From an archaeon (GTDB lineage Archaea > Nanobdellota > Nanobdellia > Woesearchaeales > SM23-78), in contig JAZDMG010000028.1 of NCBI GenBank assembly GCA_043801165.1, forward strand, positions 10,988 to 74,987: a stretch of DNA of 64,000 nt. The letters run 5' to 3'. This document shows positions 7,689 to 58,743 of the stretch, one piece after another. How positions within the stretch are numbered: the stretch's first letter is position 1; every line of letters starts with the position of its first letter. The notes beneath the pieces were generated by a model. That model worked only from the letters and a program-made list of their open reading frames with translations. It was not told where the DNA came from and ran no database searches. Made by a program: the position numbers and the translations under genes.

Positions 7689-10100
7689 TCATTCCTTGCT
7701 CAGCTCAGTAATCAGGAATATGAACTCCGAGAGGAAGTTGTTCTTTTCCTCGTCAGGGATGAATGTATCCAGCAGAAGCCTATCTGATTTCTTGTAGAAT
7801 CCTAACAGCAGGACCTTGAGCAGCACAGGCACTCTTGATTCCTTTGCTTTGGAATAGAAGGCTGCATCATCGAATTGGTCAGGCAGCTTGAATATTGAGG
7901 CGTAAATGCTCACTATGGCTGAATGCATCTCTTTGGGGGCGACATTGGTCCTGTTGCTTAAGCCGATCAGCTCTTCCCTATAGCTCTTGAACTCCTCTGG
8001 ATTCATCAACTGCTTCCTGCGCCCCAGAATTTTTATGACCCGACACTTCCTGCAGAACCTGTTCAGCCCAATCATCAGCATGAAGAATTTATTGTTGTCA
8101 TATAATCGTTTTGCGTACTGCGGCCTTGCAAAAACCAAGAATACATAGAACAAGAACACTCCCATTGTTATCAAGAGAATCAAGCCGAGCATGACGAACC
8201 CTAATATATAAGCCTTGAATAAATCAGCGAATGCACATTTCCTGCATGGTCCACCACAATCGGTGAATCTCTCTCCGCCGTTCTTCTTTCCATCGTCACA
8301 GGACGGGCAAGGCGCACATTTTCCGCCGCAATCAACTCCCTCTTCTCCCTGGTTCTGCAGCCCATCCGAGCAATTGCCACAGAGCTTCGGGCATGGGCCC
8401 TCGCAATCAATGCCTTTTTCTCCCTGGTTTCTCACATTATCATGGCATGATGCAAAGGTGCACATCTTGCTCCTGCAGTCAAGGCTCTCACAATCACGGC
8501 CATATTTACAGCTCTGGTTGCCCTGGCATTTTTTGCAGGAGCCGCCGCAGTCAACATCGCTCTCATTCTGGTTGAGCATGCGATCAGAGCAGCTGGGACA
8601 TGGGACACAGGGACCACCACAATCAACCTCTCCCTCACCTTGGTTCTGGATCTTGTCAGAGCAGCTGGGACATGGGACACAGGGACCACCACAATCAACC
8701 CCAGTCTCTATGCCATTCTTGATGCTGTCATTGCATGACGCAGAGTAGATGCACTGTTTTATCTCATCTGGTTTTGTCCTGTTGTCATCGCAGTCTGACA
8801 TATCATTGCATCTTCTCATCTGGAATCCCAGAGGCATGCAAGCCCCCCAAGCAGTGCAGTTCCAGTCAGGCCTGCAACCTTCAAGGTCTCCCTCGCAAAG
8901 GCCGCAGTCAAAAGAGCAGGTGGTGCAATTCTCCCCTTGACCGCAGAAATAATTTCCGCAGAACTCCTCGATGCTCATGTTGCTGAATCGCTTTATGACC
9001 TGGGAATTTATGACATCAACCTTCACTATGTTGCTCTCGGCTGTCGCATTGAACATGTCGCTTGCGATGAAGACAAAATAGGCATATCCCAGGGTTCCTG
9101 TCATCGGATCAAAAAAGACAGTGCCATCCTTTGCAAAGCTCACCCTAATCTGCGCGTAGGCCACAACAAAATCATAGCTTGGCTGCACCTGCCTGAATCC
9201 GAAGAAGAGGCGCCCTCCGTCAGGGTCGCGTATATAATCATTAAGGTCATAGGCGCTTGCTCCTGTGTCGCTGAACAAGACAAACCCAGGCACTTCATGC
9301 ACCAATACAGGAGGCCTGTTGACCTTCAAAACCTGGAACTCCCACACCTGGACTGAAGAGAGATTGTAGGAGTCAGTTATGATCACAGTGATGTTATGCA
9401 CCCCGGAAACATTAAAACCAGGAGTGAACAGCAAAGAGCTCCTGCCAGCAGATCCAACAATAGGTTGTGAATCAAAAAGCCATTCATAGGTGACGGTCTC
9501 TTCCGGATCATCAAGCTCAACCTTGACCGAGAAATTTATCGTGGCTGTCTGGTTTGTGCCGAATTCATCCAGGGCAGGCTTGGCATCAACTATCTTTGGC
9601 CTGACAAACACCTCTAAAGTGACTATCGCGGTGTCTGCGCATGAGCCTTTTACAGCCACGACCGCGATTCGCGAAGAGCCTCTGTCAGATGATTTCGGTG
9701 TGAAATCAAGCACTCCATCTCTTGAAAGGTTTATCCCTGCAAGATTCCTGCCAAGCAAAGCATAGGAATATATCACGCCTGCTTCGCCCATGTTGCTGAG
9801 GTTGAAATCATAGCTGAAAGAGACATCTTCTTTTAGCACAAATCTCTCAGGAAAGATTATCTTTGGGGTGTTGGTGATATCACAGGCTCCCTGGACCTCT
9901 TGGCATAGGATGATGATTGCACTAATCATGATTATCGCTAGCCAGGCATTCCTGCCAGAACCACACGGATGGCATATCTCGCGGCCTAAAACACTCAACC
10001 TCTTCCCTCTGATTTTAAATTTGATTAATCGTTTATCATAACACGCCATTAGAAGTATAAAAATGTAGCTATTTTCAGGCACGGAACGACAGACGGCCAC
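7689..10100 (-). CDS. Type I membrane surface protein. It has an N-terminal signal (alternative start ATG at 9928, MISAIIILCQEVQGA), a cadherin-like region with DPDGG, six or more Cys-rich 24-aa repeats (DCGGPCVPCPSCSD...NQGE), one TM helix and a cytoplasmic tail of about 150 aa
   Basis: A hydrophobic N-terminus is present. The repeats have the form (V/I)DCGG(P/S/K)C.(P/K)C(P/Q)SC.D...NQ.E. The TM segment reads FKAYILGFVMLGLILLITMGVFLFYVFLVFA. Confidence 0.5.
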   Translation of the reverse strand: MAVCRSVPENSYIFILLMACYDKRLIKFKIRGKRLSVLGREICHPCGSGRNAWLAIIMISAIIILCQEVQGACDITNTPKIIFPERFVLKEDVSFSYDFNLSNMGEAGVIYSYALLGRNLAGINLSRDGVLDFTPKSSDRGSSRIAVVAVKGSCADTAIVTLEVFVRPKIVDAKPALDEFGTNQTATINFSVKVELDDPEETVTYEWLFDSQPIVGSAGRSSLLFTPGFNVSGVHNITVIITDSYNLSSVQVWEFQVLKVNRPPVLVHEVPGFVLFSDTGASAYDLNDYIRDPDGGRLFFGFRQVQPSYDFVVAYAQIRVSFAKDGTVFFDPMTGTLGYAYFVFIASDMFNATAESNIVKVDVINSQVIKRFSNMSIEEFCGNYFCGQGENCTTCSFDCGLCEGDLEGCRPDWNCTAWGACMPLGFQMRRCNDMSDCDDNRTKPDEIKQCIYSASCNDSIKNGIETGVDCGGPCVPCPSCSDKIQNQGEGEVDCGGPCVPCPSCSDRMLNQNESDVDCGGSCKKCQGNQSCKYGRDCESLDCRSKMCTFASCHDNVRNQGEKGIDCEGPCPKLCGNCSDGLQNQGEEGVDCGGKCAPCPSCDDGKKNGGERFTDCGGPCRKCAFADLFKAYILGFVMLGLILLITMGVFLFYVFLVFARPQYAKRLYDNNKFFMLMIGLNRFCRKCRVIKILGRRKQLMNPEEFKSYREELIGLSNRTNVAPKEMHSAIVSIYASIFKLPDQFDDAAFYSKAKESRVPVLLKVLLLGFYKKSDRLLLDTFIPDEEKNNFLSEFIFLITELSKE
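8585..8700. repeat. Tandem 72-bp near-identical DNA repeat inside the surface protein gene, encoding the CGGPCVPCPSCSD units. More degenerate copies lie at about 8260-8580
   Basis: The block cagagcagctgggacatgggacacagggaccaccacaatcaacc occurs at 8585 and again at 8657. Confidence 0.8.
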
Positions 10101-10185
10101 GGCCGTCTTTGATAAAAATCCAAAACATTAATAAATGCTTCTGACCATTAGCAGATAAAAGGGAGATTTAAGAGGTGAGCGAGGA

Positions 10186-33661: not shown

Positions 33662-34402
33662 CTAATTGAGCCTGCTCATCTTTCCTATCTTGCCGAAGGC
33701 ATAGGTCTTGTCAGCAACGACAAAAGCCTCAAAGTCATCTAAGTTCTTTAGGAAAGGGCTGAGAAGCTTTTCCTGCAGCACATCAGTGCCTTCTGTGACG
33801 AAATTGAAGCTCGGCACCACTATGAGGTTCTTGCGCCCATATTTACCGCGAAGAAAGCACTTATATCTCTCGATGCGAGCAGAATCCCTGATGCCGATGG
33901 CTGGATGCTCATGGCCGATGATCATTGTCTTTGCCTTCTTGAACACAGCACTCTTTACAGGCATCAGCTTATCACCGTGGCACAACAGCACATCGCCAAT
34001 AGATAAGCTCTCTCTAAGCTCAACCTCTTTCCTGCGGGCAATAGGGCCCAGGATCTTGTCATGGTTGCCTTTCAGGATTACCACCCGCGTCTTTGCTGTC
34101 AGATAATCAAGCAAGGAAAGAGCATCCTTCCATTCCTGCCTTGAGATTGTCCCAAACTCATGCTTGACATCACCAAGCAGGACAATGAGCTCCGGCTTCA
34201 CCTCGCGCATAATCTTCTCAAGGTTCTGCATCATCTCCTTGAAATAGACTCTGGGCACAAGAAGGCCGCCCCTGTTAAGAGCCTCTTCATAGCCTATGTG
34301 CAAATCCCCGACCACAAGAGTTCTCTCTTTCTCAAGAAACAAAGCTAACCCGACAATCCTAATATTGGGCAGAATATACATTATAGTAAGTGACTGCGGC
34401 AA
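33662..34402 (-). CDS. Calcineurin-like metallophosphoesterase. The likely start is ATG 34381
   Basis: The motifs VVGDLHIG, LLGDVKHEF, GNHD and GHEH are present. Confidence 0.65.
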   Translation of the reverse strand: MPQSLTIMYILPNIRIVGLALFLEKERTLVVGDLHIGYEEALNRGGLLVPRVYFKEMMQNLEKIMREVKPELIVLLGDVKHEFGTISRQEWKDALSLLDYLTAKTRVVILKGNHDKILGPIARRKEVELRESLSIGDVLLCHGDKLMPVKSAVFKKAKTMIIGHEHPAIGIRDSARIERYKCFLRGKYGRKNLIVVPSFNFVTEGTDVLQEKLLSPFLKNLDDFEAFVVADKTYAFGKIGKMSRLN

Positions 34403-35840: not shown

Positions 35841-36701
35841 TTATTTCGTTGCTGCATACTTGAAATTCACATCACGTTGTTCAGCTGGAAGTTGATACCC
35901 ACCGCATTCAAAGGGATAAGCAAGCACTCCGCTTGGAAAATCCGCATCAGGGCTATAGCATTTCCAGTAAAAGAATGAGCTTGGTTGGATCCAATGAAGA
36001 TAAGGATTTCCTTCTTTAACAGTCGGATTTATTGATGTATTTGATACTTTGAAACAAAAAGAAGCAAAAGTGTGTGTGCCAACACTGCCGGCATATCCAA
36101 TCAATTCTCCGCGTTTTACTGTAAATCCAATTAATGCTTTGCATGCAGATGCTTTGCCTTCTTTTGTTATGTAATCATCAAATGCAAAGAAAAGGTGTCC
36201 CTGAGCTTGGCTACTGTCATACAACTCTTCAGATTCACTACAATCTGGATTTTGATAGTGTCCAAGCAACAGTGGCGAGCTGTATAAATGATAAGTCTTA
36301 ATAATCATACCTGGCCAATCAGGACTGACAGACTCAAAGTATAACACCACATCATTAAATGGGGTGATTTTTTGTCCGTCTACAATCTTATATTCTGCAT
36401 TATTATTTTGAAAGCCTACTAATACCATATCAATAGGTGCAAGTAAAGGTGTTCCATGCGCTAGTTCGAATTCTATTCCACATTTAGTAGCATAAGGCTT
36501 CGAATATTTACTGCCACTTTTTGGGCCAAGCGTGATTATATTAGGGTCAGCATCGCCAGTATATGCTTCCGTATGCGTATTGATACCGACCATGCTGGAT
36601 GGCGGCGAGGTAATCACGGATGCACTCGTATTAGGCACTGGAATAGGTAGAGAAGGAGGGGTTTTGTTGAATATTTTTTCAAAAATTCTACTCGGATTCA
36701 C
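35841..36701 (-). CDS. LytM/M23-like peptidase-fold protein, possibly degenerate. The ORF starts at GTG. An upstream ATG (36765) with a signal anchor is in the +1 frame across an A10 tract
   Basis: LAHGTPLLAPIDMVLVG resembles the M23 block G.D...GTPV.A...G.V. VKRGELIGYAGSVGTHTF resembles the M23 block V..G..IG.VG.TG..TGPH. No HxH motif is seen. Removing one A from the A10 tract gives MKKKFIVLILILVFVIGIFYAVNPSRIFE in frame. Confidence 0.45.
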   Translation of the reverse strand: MNPSRIFEKIFNKTPPSLPIPVPNTSASVITSPPSSMVGINTHTEAYTGDADPNIITLGPKSGSKYSKPYATKCGIEFELAHGTPLLAPIDMVLVGFQNNNAEYKIVDGQKITPFNDVVLYFESVSPDWPGMIIKTYHLYSSPLLLGHYQNPDCSESEELYDSSQAQGHLFFAFDDYITKEGKASACKALIGFTVKRGELIGYAGSVGTHTFASFCFKVSNTSINPTVKEGNPYLHWIQPSSFFYWKCYSPDADFPSGVLAYPFECGGYQLPAEQRDVNFKYAATK

Positions 36702-37139
36702 GGCATAAAAGATGCCAATAACAAATACTAGAATTAGAATTAAAACTATGAATTTTTTTTTTCATAACATCTAACTTAATATTAGTGTTTATATATTTAC
36801 TTAAAAACGCGTAGTTTTATTTTAGACTTGGAATTCTTATTAGCCCCAATCTTTGACTTAAAAGTATAGTAGCCCCGCTCGGACTTTCGCCAGCCTTTTC
36901 TAAAAAAGGTTGTTTCGAACCGAGGTCCCAGGACATTCTCAGCCAGAACAGACGTCCACGGCTTCCAAAATCCCGGATGACTGGTCTAAAAACAGAGTTT
37001 TTGGACTTTCAAAAATCTCTGATTTTTGTTTGACCACTACACCACGGGGCTATAACGCAGATGTTGGAAGCTATGCTTTATAAATCTTTTTGGGCGAAAA
37101 ACAAAAAACTATAAATAAGCTCGGCCGTTTCTTTGGCAG

Positions 37140-49684: not shown

Positions 49685-49758
49685 GGGGCTGTAGTGTAGC
49701 TTGGCTATCACTGGCGCTTGGGGTGTGTCCAACCGGAGTTCAAATCTTCGCAGCCCCA
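49685..49758 (+). tRNA. tRNA-Pro (anticodon GGG), tentative
   Basis: The acceptor is GGGGCUG/CAGCCCC plus A. The D-arm is GUGU..UCAC. The anticodon arm is GGCGC-UUGGGGU-GUGUC with two G-U pairs. The variable loop has 4 nt. The T-arm is CGGAG-UUCAAAU-CUUCG. Confidence 0.6.
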
Positions 49759-49926
49759 CTTAATCTTTTTGCCAAGGCAAAAACATTAATGAAAAAACTA
49801 GTGCAGGACTTTCGCCTATCGGCGAAGTCCTGCTCCTCATGTGCTACCGAGCAGCAGACTGCGAGTGTAGTGCCTTTCCCTCAAGGCTTTCATAAAGGCT
49901 TGGTTTACATCTTCGCAGCCCCACTT
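49744..49926. repeat. Direct repeat of the tRNA-Pro 3' end (ATCTTCGCAGCCCCACTT at 49744-49761 and 49909-49926). A 14-bp-stem hairpin (49803-49833) lies between the copies
   Basis: The 18-nt copies are identical. Both are followed by T-runs. Confidence 0.7.
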
Positions 49927-52290: not shown

Positions 52291-52372
52291 ACATTTCTTT
52301 ATTTTTTTATTAGCCCCTTATTTTAAAACCAAAATTTTATAAACTCCTAACTTTTTCAGCAGAGTAGACCAC

Positions 52373-52495
52373 CCCGCCTAGCTCAACGGCAGAGCGTTCG
52401 GCTGTAGATGTTGCTGGACAGACCCGTAGCGGTCATGGATGAAAAGCAACCAGCCGAGCCCGAAAGGTTCCTGGTTCAAATCCGGGGGCGGGGAT
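52373..52495 (+). tRNA. tRNA-Tyr (anticodon GTA) with a canonical 51-nt intron after position 37
   Basis: The acceptor is CCCCGCC/GGCGGGG plus A. The D-arm is GCUC-AACGGCA-GAGC. The anticodon arm is UUCGG-CUGUAG[intron]C-CCGAA. The T-arm is CCUGG-UUCAAAU-CCGGG. Confidence 0.75.
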
Positions 52496-56537: not shown

Positions 56538-56918
56538 TTACTGTTTCTTTTTCTGTCTCCCGCGCACCAGGGTTGACCTTTCCACTGGCAGGCGCGGGAT
56601 CCTGTCCTTCAGGCCGTAAAAGTAATTTCCAAATAAAGCATACATGTTTTCAATCTCTGATTTCCCTTCCCTTGTCAGCACGTACATCTTCTTCCGCCCA
56701 TCCCTCTTGTAAGAGATCAGCTTCCTCTTTCGCAATCGCTTAAGCGCAGGATAGATGGTCCCGGGCGTCAAAGAGTTGCCTTTCCGTCTACCCATCCTCT
56801 TTGAAAGCTCGTCGCCACAGAGGCTGCTGAGGTTCAGCTCATGGAGGATCAGAAACGACAGAAAACCCTTGAGCTCCATCCTTTCTCCGTCGGGAATACC
56901 TTTAATCAGCTTAGGCAT
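56538..56918 (-). CDS. PadR-family winged-helix transcriptional regulator
   Basis: The wHTH reads LKGFLSFLILHEL...GDELSKRM...LTPGTIYPALKRLRKRKLISYKRD. Confidence 0.65.
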   Translation of the reverse strand: MPKLIKGIPDGERMELKGFLSFLILHELNLSSLCGDELSKRMGRRKGNSLTPGTIYPALKRLRKRKLISYKRDGRKKMYVLTREGKSEIENMYALFGNYFYGLKDRIPRLPVERSTLVRGRQKKKQ

Positions 56919-57645
56919 GGATTATCACTGTCGAAACTGATTTATATACTTATTGGTGATAAGATATATATTCTAAACAATATATAATTTATACAATATG
57001 TTGTTTGTACTATTAATAATATAAGCAATATATTGTTTGAACAATATAATGAAAATTTTGGTTTCAATCAATTGCGAATTTTTGATCCAAAAATCAAAGA
57101 AACCGATGGATTCGCAGGGGTAAAAAAAAAAAGCAGACCAGCAAAGGAAAATTGAAAGACCGGATCAAGCACAAATTGCCAAAAAAACCACGAGATTAGA
57201 AGAAAATGAGCACAGGAACATCGAGAGCGGGAATTTGTAGGCAGGAGCGCAAAAAAGACCCTTCGGAAACCTTCAAAGACCAAAAAAAGAAGAAAAGGCT
57301 TTACGCCTTTGATGAAGACAAAAGCCTAAAGGCAAAAGTGATCCTGACATCAGATAGAACCGCCTTTTTGCACAAAAAAAAGAAAAAACCACGAGATTCG
57401 TGGAAAACCTGAGAACAGCATCAACTTGACTGACAATACAAGCAATCATGGCAGGCGAGGCCAAGAACAGGATTTTACAAAGAAGAGCTGCAGGAGCCCT
57501 AACAAGAAGGCCGATCGACAGCATCCGAGCCTGGGAAATCAAAAGATTTCATAAAAACCATCAGGTCAAGAGGATATCGATGGATGATACTGGATGTGTT
57601 TTTTAGAAAGATTTATATATCTCAACTTCAAGGGAGGAATTAAGG

Positions 57646-58743
57646 ATGGAAACGGGTAAGATAGGAGTGAGAGAGAAAAAATACCTTGTCTATGCTCTTC
57701 TGGCGTTAATCCTCATCCCGAACGCTTTTGCTTATTTCAACAGCGGCATTTCCATATTAGATAAACCCATGACTACGTTCTTTGGGCTGTTCAACATCCA
57801 GGCCCTGAGAACAAATCCTATGATCCAGGATGGTTTTGTTATCTTTGTCATATTCATGAGCGTGTTCGCGGCAGCCAACACAGGCTTGAAAAAAGTTTTC
57901 AAGGATGATCATCGGGCTGCGGGCATAATCAGCTTTGCCGTCGCTGCAAGCGGCGCATTCCTGATGCCTATGCAGTGGCTTCGGGCAACCGGAGGATTAT
58001 TATCAACACTGGTTTATATCCTGATTTTTGGAGGATTATCCTACCTAGCAGTCACCGGTCTGAGCAAGGACAAGGATGGAAAGCCAAGCTGGCCTAAGAA
58101 TGTGGTTGGCCTCGTTCTTGTGATGTTCCTTTTGATGGCTAATGAATCATTCTCGATGAGCGTCGGCCTGAATCCAGAGCAGAGTCTGATGCAGGGCACT
58201 GTTGTGACCTGGATGACCGCATTGTTGGGCGCATTGATAATTGTCAAAATCGTCCAGATGATGAAGAGCTTCGGTAGCGAAGTGCCGGCACCAGCGGTGC
58301 CTCCTCCGGGAGGACCAGTACCCCCGGCAGGGCCTGCACCACCGGGAGGTCCGGCCGTTCCGGTTACGCCTCCGAACATCAGGGATGGCCTTAACCGTCT
58401 TGCTAGGCTCGTGACCCAACTGAACACAACCAGCCCCAGGGTAATAGCTGAAGGCAATGCGATATTGCAAACAATCAACACCCGCGGCCGCGGAGCAGTC
58501 AATGCTGCTGACCAGAACCTTTTCAATGATGACTTGACTAATCTGGCCAATGTCATCAGGAATACTCACGCCGAGATTGAGGGCATAGTGACTGACCATG
58601 ATTTTGCCAGCATCACAGCAGCAGATCAGCTCCAATTCGCGCATCTATCAACAGCGTTCCTTCATACGGAGCTGAACCTTTTCAGATACATTAACGAGTT
58701 TGCTCATAGATCAGCTCATGGAGGAGGGCCATTTACTCCCTGA
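57646..58743 (+). CDS. Polytopic membrane protein (about 5-6 TM) with Pro-rich linker (PAPAVPPPGGPVPPAGPAPPGGPAVPVTPP) and C-terminal soluble helical domain
   Basis: The hydrophobicity pattern and low-complexity P/G/A tract support this. Confidence 0.4.
   Translation: METGKIGVREKKYLVYALLALILIPNAFAYFNSGISILDKPMTTFFGLFNIQALRTNPMIQDGFVIFVIFMSVFAAANTGLKKVFKDDHRAAGIISFAVAASGAFLMPMQWLRATGGLLSTLVYILIFGGLSYLAVTGLSKDKDGKPSWPKNVVGLVLVMFLLMANESFSMSVGLNPEQSLMQGTVVTWMTALLGALIIVKIVQMMKSFGSEVPAPAVPPPGGPVPPAGPAPPGGPAVPVTPPNIRDGLNRLARLVTQLNTTSPRVIAEGNAILQTINTRGRGAVNAADQNLFNDDLTNLANVIRNTHAEIEGIVTDHDFASITAADQLQFAHLSTAFLHTELNLFRYINEFAHRSAHGGGPFTP

Follow-up and report, generated by a model that had tools for sequence, protein, structure and literature searches.

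A tenth adenine after the start codon of an anchored M23-fold protein gene in a Woesearchaeales archaeon

We analysed a 64,000-nt stretch of archaeal DNA (hereafter the window; Woesearchaeales, SM23-78; assembly GCA_043801165.1, contig JAZDMG010000028.1, positions 10,988 to 74,987 of the forward strand), in which a run of ten A residues (A10) shifts the start codon of one minus-strand gene by one base relative to the remainder of that gene. The product of this gene is a membrane-anchored, outward-facing protein, made of three lysines and a hydrophobic anchor, a Pro/Ser/Thr-rich linker and a domain with an M23 fold. Judged against its relatives, the working form of the gene is the one with nine A (A9; ATG AAA AAA AAA TTC..., 307 aa). 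The tenth A is a one-base slip of an ordinary kind, which arose in the cell or during sequencing or assembly, at an A-run of lysine codons in an otherwise healthy gene. We tentatively favour a genuine replication-slippage allele, very recent or still polymorphic in the sampled population.

The displaced start codon and its counterparts in relatives

On the minus strand, the ATG at 36765-36763 is followed by exactly ten A (36762-36753; T10 on the plus strand) and then by TTCATAG, and the surrounding region reads ...GTTAGATGTT ATG AAAAAAAAAA TTCATAGTTTTAATT.... An earlier reading, made from the letters of the window without database searches (the sequence-only reading), had pointed out this run directly after the ATG, as well as the 25-aa peptide in which translation from the ATG comes to a dead end (36765-36688), and both were found as described. 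The same reading held that the main open reading frame (ORF) has a GTG as its only start and carries no signal. The first canonical start in the long ORF (35841-36701, 286 aa) is indeed a GTG, at 36701-36699. However, this GTG is codon 22 (Val) of the anchor itself, and the lysines and the anchor are intact in the frame of the body. This frame reads TGA-AAA-AAA-AAA-TTC..., and KKK, anchor, linker and domain are all whole in it, the ATG alone being out of register with the gene.

When one A is deleted, the ATG is fused to the long ORF, yielding a protein of 307 aa that begins MKKKFIVLILILVFVIGIFYAVNPSRIFE... (MKKKFIVLILILVFVIGIFYAVNPSRIFEK...). In a tblastn comparison of this A9 protein with the window, residues 2-307 aligned to 36761-35844 with 100% identity in a single frame. 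The A9 reconstruction put forward in the sequence-only reading is exact: the closest homologues are 307 aa long, align with 100% coverage and have the same K/R-rich anchor in frame. A second ATG (36770-36768) lies in the frame of the body, but TTA TGA comes next. Since TGA ends 25 of the 57 ORFs in the window, where it is the commonest stop, read-through or recoding of this TGA from the upstream ATG is not credible and was rejected. By composition alone a run of at least ten is unremarkable (0.56 expected in the window by first-order Markov simulation, two observed). The observation is non-random because the anchor that is out of frame with the ATG is the conserved N-terminus of a protein family.

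In this family, 66 orthologous loci could be evaluated. A hydrophobic N-terminal segment, either an anchor or a lipoprotein signal, is in frame in 63 of them, the other three end at a contig edge (L021, L042, L060), and none is frameshifted. Some members are short (252-253 aa, starting MEGINTH). We considered them as parallel frameshifts and rejected this, their start being a conserved internal Met; the three N-terminally cut loci examined, which do not include the contigs of these short members, were all cut by contig ends and gave no evidence of a frameshift.

We then compared the start region at the DNA level in 13 archaeal-type alleles, the window included. The window is the only one of the 13 that is out of frame, as against none of the other 12. 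ATG followed by A9 and TTCATAG, in frame, was found in two relatives, namely the metagenome-assembled genome (MAG) archaeon DeMMO2_15 (L001) and a Logan assembly (L085) with 94% nucleotide identity to the window gene. Two further in-frame alleles read ATG ATA AAA AAA (A7, L020) and ATG AAG AAA AAA (A6, L086). The remaining eight, with runs of at most five and likewise in frame, show ATA AAA AGG, AAA AGA AAA, AAA GGA AAA, AGA ATA AAA, AGG AAG AGA and CGG ATG AAA. An uninterrupted run of at least nine is thus present in three of the 13 alleles, and in ten it is broken by K, R, I, G or M codons. A four-way alignment of the promoter and the 5' coding region (the window, L001, L002 and L003) contains one single-base gap, which belongs to the window. 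In a search with a DNA pattern of fixed flanks and free tract length, the A9 relative alone was recovered from genome contigs and nothing from metagenome contigs. Even within the 90%-identity protein cluster the N-termini vary (MIKRF, MKGKF, MKKKF, MRKRF, MKRKF). Codons 2-4 are therefore free to vary while basic, with the homopolymer as an occasional by-product and not a maintained element. The sequence-only reading had named orthologues that lack the tract and start elsewhere as grounds against its observation. The tract is indeed absent from most orthologues, yet their start codon is the same.

These comparisons bear directly on programmed recoding, in which A10 would be the normal state and the full-length protein would be made by efficient +1/-2 ribosomal frameshifting or by obligatory transcriptional slippage. 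A-runs are slippery for RNA polymerases and ribosomes alike (PMC5009743), and the tract would lie a few nucleotides from the probable 5' end of the transcript. However, because the tract is not conserved and no orthologue is out of frame, a conserved programmed frameshift or slippage site is excluded: the arrangement occurs in none of the 63 informative loci, and the run is interrupted in most alleles by the variation in codons 2-4. Moreover, the 25-aa zero-frame product is merely the anchor DNA read out of frame, and to rescue A10, 1 nt must be lost or 2 nt gained, while slippage on A/T runs gives mostly 1-nt insertions (PMC5574713). The programmed frameshifting proposed in the sequence-only reading did not survive this comparison, and the probability that we leave to it is next to nil.

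In order to describe selection on the gene, the A9 reading was compared with the closest full-length relative (L002). The two differ by 27 synonymous and 13 non-synonymous changes, with a ratio of non-synonymous to synonymous rates (dN/dS) of 0.12. Substitutions unique to the window, defined at sites where L002, L085 and L086 agree, comprise eight synonymous and three conservative non-synonymous changes (S230T, V259I, D288G), as against a neutral expectation of 78% non-synonymous (P of at most 3 of 11 = 4e-4). No internal stop and no second indel were found in the gene. These values point to strong purifying selection, and from the low dN/dS, the pattern on the window branch and the lack of any other lesion it follows that the gene was functional along essentially all of its own branch. 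Hence a decaying or old pseudogene was rejected, and the frame break is either not real, or very young, or reversible.

The public record gives a different picture of the gene. The protein MFH0870220.1 ("MAG: hypothetical protein V1866_04140 [archaeon]", 250 aa; P0121 in our set) is encoded on a 90,761-bp contig and falls in the 90%-identity cluster of the closest homologue (P0001). It shares every residue (100% identity) with the translation of window positions 36593-35841, which runs from Met58 to the stop; it is very probably, to judge from this identity, the annotation of the window itself. Its name has no pseudogene or frameshift flag, and the 250-aa call drops the anchor, the linker and the conserved motif VPNTSAS.ITSPP. 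The annotation looks wrong: behind the 250-aa "hypothetical protein" stands an anchored surface protein of 307 aa, and the appropriate entry would be either a gene marked as frameshifted or the gene corrected to A9.

It might be argued from this record, the likely public one, which calls the 250-aa version, that a truncated cytoplasmic protein without the anchor is the real product, with translation from the GTG (286 aa) or from Met58 (250 aa). However, every informative family member has an N-terminal anchor or a lipoprotein signal, the shorter call loses the conserved motif, and no Shine-Dalgarno-like sequence could be read ahead of the GTG or of Met58. In addition, the intact KKK and anchor coding sequence upstream would be an unexplained coincidence. 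We consider such a product very unlikely.

Origin and consequences of the extra base

If the DNA of the organism has A9, the gene is normal, and the tenth A came from sequencing, polishing or consensus building, after which the annotation pipeline called 250 aa from Met58. Such a technical artefact is quite possible, and the homopolymer sequencing error suggested in the sequence-only reading is a live explanation. The gene is otherwise perfect and constrained up to the tip of its branch, and both relatives with an uninterrupted run have A9 in the same sequence context. Furthermore, among homopolymers in coding regions the A10 tract is the longest of the window. Just one further run of at least ten occurs, A11 at 57122-57132. 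It was rejected as an internal control, since the region around it (56990-57640) is probably non-coding; lying where no gene could be recognised, it gives no counter-example.

Against an artefact, no other indel signature was detected. The 75 homopolymers of 6-8 nt that occur within ORFs all keep the frame, and a greedy ORF map places 86% of the window in long unbroken ORFs, the largest of 1185 aa. A second split gene was not found anywhere in the 64 kb. A Metallophos ORF (33662-34402, 246 aa) followed by a 339-nt gap was considered as a second broken gene and rejected, as the ORF looks complete, and the other large gaps in the window have no frame-shifted continuations. The record does not come from an unpolished, indel-prone technology, and a single miscall at the sole coding 10-mer is still compatible with it. 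Short-read data at normal coverage usually call a 10-mer correctly, a point that counts against an artefact if the platform was short-read.

A genuine allele, with the extra A present in cells rather than in the consensus alone, would fit the otherwise clean assembly, in which all coding runs of 6-8 nt stay in frame. The gene also has features of an accessory gene, low guanine-plus-cytosine (GC) content and shifting neighbours, which make its loss tolerable. Runs of about nine or more A/T are hot spots of polymerase slippage (PMC5009743, PMC5574713). Several points weigh against this reading. The extra base may exist in the consensus alone, and the site, as the longest coding homopolymer of the window, is the likeliest place for a miscall. 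There is no relaxed constraint, as an artefact predicts, so that a real mutation must be extremely young. Finally, the family is so conserved (55-96% identity, in archaea and bacteria) that a null allele in the majority needs drift, a bottleneck or a relaxed need for the protein. The comparative data exclude programmed recoding and old pseudogenisation, and cannot separate an artefact from a fresh mutation. The case is a worked example of how a 5' A-run of lysine codons is at once the likeliest site of a consensus error and a real mutational hot spot.

The consequences of a genuine allele can be outlined from the arrangement of the frames. An unprogrammed +1 slippage at a mutable, non-conserved homopolymer would leave the ATG one base off everything downstream. 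Ribosomes that start at the ATG, probably the very beginning of a leaderless mRNA, would reach a stop after 25 codons. With neither a canonical start nor a Shine-Dalgarno-like motif available, the anchor would not be translated in the frame of the body, and a product started at the GTG or at Met58 would lack the export signal that every informative family member has. The exported protein would be absent, or present in traces from rare A9 or A12 transcripts or from rare +1/-2 ribosome slips. The A10 allele would then be null or, at best, very leaky, with a low level of rescue by slippage.

The closest precedent is inlA of Listeria monocytogenes, in which a 5' poly(A) tract lies in N-terminal lysine codons and a change of +/-1 leads to an 8-aa product (PMC2831843; Orsi, Bowen & Wiedmann 2010). 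In both cases lysine codons form an A-run within a few codons of the ATG in the gene for a secreted or surface protein, and a one-base change produces a very short dead-end peptide (8 aa in inlA, 25 aa in the window), with loss of the exported protein. Lineages of L. monocytogenes with an interrupted tract express the protein stably. In contrast to the window, which is one out-of-frame sequence from one metagenome assembly, inlA shows repeated length changes within one species, and its reversion has been measured; its tract is A7 as compared with A9/A10 here, where the host is archaeal. In bacteria and in 18 archaeal genomes, the 5' ends of genes are enriched in A/T tracts (PMC2831843).

For a leaky allele, the closest model is provided by the poly(A) frameshifts of Buchnera and Blochmannia, which are partially rescued by slippage (PMC5009743). 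There too the organism is of a small-genome, host-dependent type, an A-run of about ten lies in an intact and constrained gene, and slippage could give a minority of in-frame mRNAs. Slippage on A/T runs in bacteria rises exponentially with run length and consists mainly of single-base insertions (PMC5574713; reviewed in PMC5009743), whereas the change needed here (-1 or +2 nt) is of the less common kind. The window genome also differs in having 44% GC, not an A+T-extreme composition, and in preferring AAG for lysine (59% of lysine codons in the window). Transcriptome-wide, no frame-restoring events were detected in Buchnera pseudogenes (PMC5574713), and we found no characterisation in the literature of slippage by archaeal RNA polymerase on such runs.

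An adaptive switch by slipped-strand phase variation, with export of the surface protein turned on at A9 and off at A10, had also been proposed in the sequence-only reading. The placement does suit a switch: the tract follows the ATG directly, at the extreme 5' end of the gene for a surface protein, which is the classic site (PMC2831843), and a change in the length of the tract switches the frame. Both the ON length (A9, in L001 and L085) and the OFF length (A10, in the window) occur among relatives, and a reversible switch would be expected to combine a low dN/dS with an OFF allele. The maintenance of the tract, however, is missing. It is broken in ten of the 13 alleles, even at a protein identity of at least 90% (MIKRF, MKGKF, MKRKF, MRKRF, AAG AAA AAA), and this lack of conservation counts against a long-maintained contingency tract. 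Lysine codons are freely replaced in close relatives, the opposite of what is expected of a tract kept for its mutability; the preference for AAG means that the run is no genome-wide style, and there is equally no sign of selection for it. In addition, the ON and OFF alleles come from different samples and different lineages, at least 6% apart in nucleotides (about 94% identity or less), and not from one population. 

The simple sequence repeat (SSR) contingency loci of Neisseria, Haemophilus, Campylobacter and Mycobacterium (PMC5084427, PMC10334774, PMC11868660) share with the window a repeat in the 5' coding region, a surface protein and on/off control by frame. Unlike the present tract, which is usually interrupted in relatives, theirs are conserved among strains and variable in length within populations. 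No SSR switch demonstrated in archaea was found in a limited literature search. We judge it improbable that a reversible slipped-strand switch, possibly softened by polymerase slippage at a leaderless mRNA start, controls surface display in this DPANN archaeon. If it did, no earlier simple-sequence contingency locus would be on record for archaea, within the limits of that search, and the switched protein might mediate contact with a host cell wall. If the tract does vary in the population, this would be one of the few hints that archaea use regulation of the contingency type.

The anchored protein and its family

An AlphaFold2 model of the A9 protein was built with a 41-sequence alignment. 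Over the whole protein, the mean predicted local distance difference test score (pLDDT) was 77 and the predicted template modelling score (pTM) 0.77. A helix was predicted at residues 2-22, the linker was of low confidence (pLDDT below 50 at residues 33-35, 46-56 and 59-67), and a beta-rich domain at about residues 90-260 had pLDDT values of 88-95. In a Foldseek search of the PDB, the top 33 matches were all of the M23/LytM type (E 3.4e-4 to 4e-2), with zoocin A first (E=3.4e-4), followed by LytM, lysostaphin, EnpA, LytU, DipM and EnvC; the template modelling (TM) score was about 0.5 on the target and about 0.25 on the query.

At the sequence level the relationship is much fainter. Pfam PF01551 scored 17.3 bits against a gathering threshold of 28.7 (E=0.0056), with half of the model covered; a search of NCBIfam with the A9 protein gave no match, and a family profile against PDB sequences gave non-significant M23 entries (E=0.29-0.41). 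In the HMMER alignments, the His of HxxxD falls on a gap or on a variable C/H/R/T position, and its Asp lies opposite a variable Glu. HxH lies opposite S-F-C, positions that read [SPAD]-F-[CRQAG] across the family. None of the invariant family residues (H64, D112, H159, H257, C208, E286) coincides with the M23 catalytic motifs. The LytM-like domain of an M23-like protein, as proposed in the sequence-only reading, is thus borne out by the predicted fold, but the Pfam score is under the threshold and the catalytic motifs are absent. On the strength of the model, the term M23-like is valid at the level of the fold only, and the modest scores indicate a distant relative.

It is unlikely that the protein is a canonical M23 zinc peptidase. 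A LytM-type domain with a role in binding or regulation is one possibility, and another is that the protein relies on the invariant residues listed above. M23/LytM proteins, including the degenerate, non-catalytic EnvC and DipM (PDB 5kvp, 2b0p, 4qpb, 4bh5, 7qrl), resemble it in the predicted fold of about residues 90-260 and in their extracytoplasmic site, and degenerate activator-type LytM domains have lost their motifs in a parallel manner. In contrast to them, the window protein matches below threshold, does not conserve HxxxD/HxH, has a larger domain (TM-score about 0.25 on the query) and belongs to an archaeon without murein. The archaeal M23 hydrolases described so far, some of them in Nanoarchaeia, are modular and have wall-binding domains (PMC12352652), which the window protein does not.

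More than 450 homologues of the A9 protein were found at E<=1e-3, all of them "hypothetical". The best are 96%, 85% and 79% identical over the full length, the first being P0001 (307 aa, 100% coverage), and identity among the members is unusually high (55-96%). The family ranges over DPANN archaea, unclassified "bacterium" MAGs, Dehalococcoidia, Planctomycetota and many marine metagenomes. The MAGs behind the archaeal-type members bear the labels Nanoarchaeota, Woesearchaeota, Micrarchaeota or "archaeon", and the N-termini of these members consist of M, three K/R-rich residues ([KRIGM]x3) and FIVLILI.VFVIGIFY, in frame. Bacterial-type members have a lipoprotein-like signal (...LLGAC..., ...LLAACGG...) in place of the anchor. 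In three of the latter (L026, L033, L084) a lipoprotein-type signal (...INLK...LLLVACGG...) is in frame with no ATG, GTG or TTG upstream before the next stop, which suggests a non-canonical start such as ATT or ATA.

The M23-fold domain is not covered by a Pfam family in any member, one member having a CARDB match only. An M23-like fold without M23 catalytic motifs and without a Pfam family may make these proteins worth a study of their own. In the window, the gene has a GC content of 36-39%, compared with 45-50% in its flanks, and the gene neighbourhood was different in every genome examined, which suggests horizontal spread of the family. No relatives were found on viral contigs, so that viral carriage was rejected, and no compensating paralogue was found in the window.

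Probable promoter, upstream tRNA-like gene and other features of the window

The features of the gene and its upstream region are collected in Table 1.

Table 1. Features of the frame-broken gene and its upstream region (positions in the window)
Feature	Position	Strand	Remark
A10 homopolymer	36753..36762	-	one base above the three lysine codons of relatives (AAA AAA AAA in the two relatives with uninterrupted A9)
ATG start codon	36763..36765	-	common to all close orthologues; here one base off the rest of the gene
Dead-end ORF, 25 aa, MKKKIHSFNSNSSICYWHLLCRESE*	36688..36765	-	ATG frame read through A10
Intact body frame to the TAA stop	35841..36761	-	residues 2-307 of the A9 protein; preceded by an in-frame TGA (36764-36762)
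Hydrophobic N-terminal membrane anchor FIVLILILVFVIGIFYAV, residues 5-22	36699..36752	-	last codon is the GTG at 36701-36699
Stretch between anchor and Met58	residues 23-57	-	includes IFNKTPPSLPIPVPNTSASVITSPPSSMVGINTHTEAYTGDADPNIITLGPK
Pro/Ser/Thr-rich low-confidence linker, about residues 33-60	36585..36668	-	holds the conserved VPNTSAS.ITSPP motif
Beta-rich domain, M23/LytM-like fold, about residues 90-260	35985..36497	-	without canonical HxxxD and HxH motifs
Internal ATG (Met58)	36591..36593	-	start of the 250-aa protein MFH0870220.1, locus tag V1866_04140
TATATAAA box, -30 to -23 from the ATG	36788..36795	-	read from the sequence; probable archaeal TATA box
tRNA-like gene, 182 nt	36870..37051	-	bounds the upstream region; ATG 104 nt downstream

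The TATATAAA box is conserved in L001, L002 and L085, where the surrounding 40 nt are nearly identical. The usual archaeal promoter spacing would place the start of the transcript at about the ATG. This spacing suggests a leaderless or near-leaderless mRNA that would begin at or next to the ATG. In a comparison of window positions 36675-36810 with L001 positions 10035-10180, the promoter and the first 90 nt or so were about 94-100% identical, against an overall identity of only 68% between the proteins; across four loci, synonymous sites in the anchor segment likewise show almost no variation. The near-identity of the 5' region could reflect recombination or mosaicism, or a constraint at the nucleotide level on the 5' end of the mRNA.

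The upstream tRNA-like gene was missed by ARAGORN with default settings and by Rfam. It reads AGCCCCGTGGTGTAGTGGTCAA ... CTCGGTTCGAA[30-nt insert]TCCGAGCGGGGCTA, the insert lying in the T-loop at 36884-36913. The order of a tRNA followed by the gene recurs in L001 and L002, and in L085 and L086 the same acceptor-end motif is found some 120 nt before the gene. The L001 copy (9816-9933) has a single intron and is called by ARAGORN when introns are allowed; canonical placement gives it the anticodon CTG (Gln). The copy in the window seems to have two or three insertions, one of them in the T-loop, and looks like a multi-intron tRNA of the DPANN type. A reading by hand suggests tRNA-Gln(UUG), and brute-force splicing combined with ARAGORN returned many inconsistent solutions.

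Elsewhere in the window, Rfam found a 123-nt intron-containing tRNA (52372-52494, plus strand) that ARAGORN did not report, and ARAGORN found a tRNA-Pro(GGG) (49685-49759, plus strand) that Rfam does not list at the gathering threshold. The tRNA annotation of this genome is tool-dependent.

The region of the A11 run (56990-57640) is a further observation of its own. About 650 nt without a clean ORF lie here between a PadR-like gene (56538-56918, minus strand) and a 365-aa ORF (57646-58743, plus strand). It gave no Pfam match and no credible Rfam match. Besides the A11, the longest homopolymer of the window, it contains A8 at 57374-57381, AAAAAACCACGAGATT twice, an AT-rich block at 56990-57060 with palindromes of the CAATATATTG type, and lysine-rich ORF fragments in three frames. 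It could be a degraded gene, an unfamiliar RNA, or a regulatory or origin-like region.

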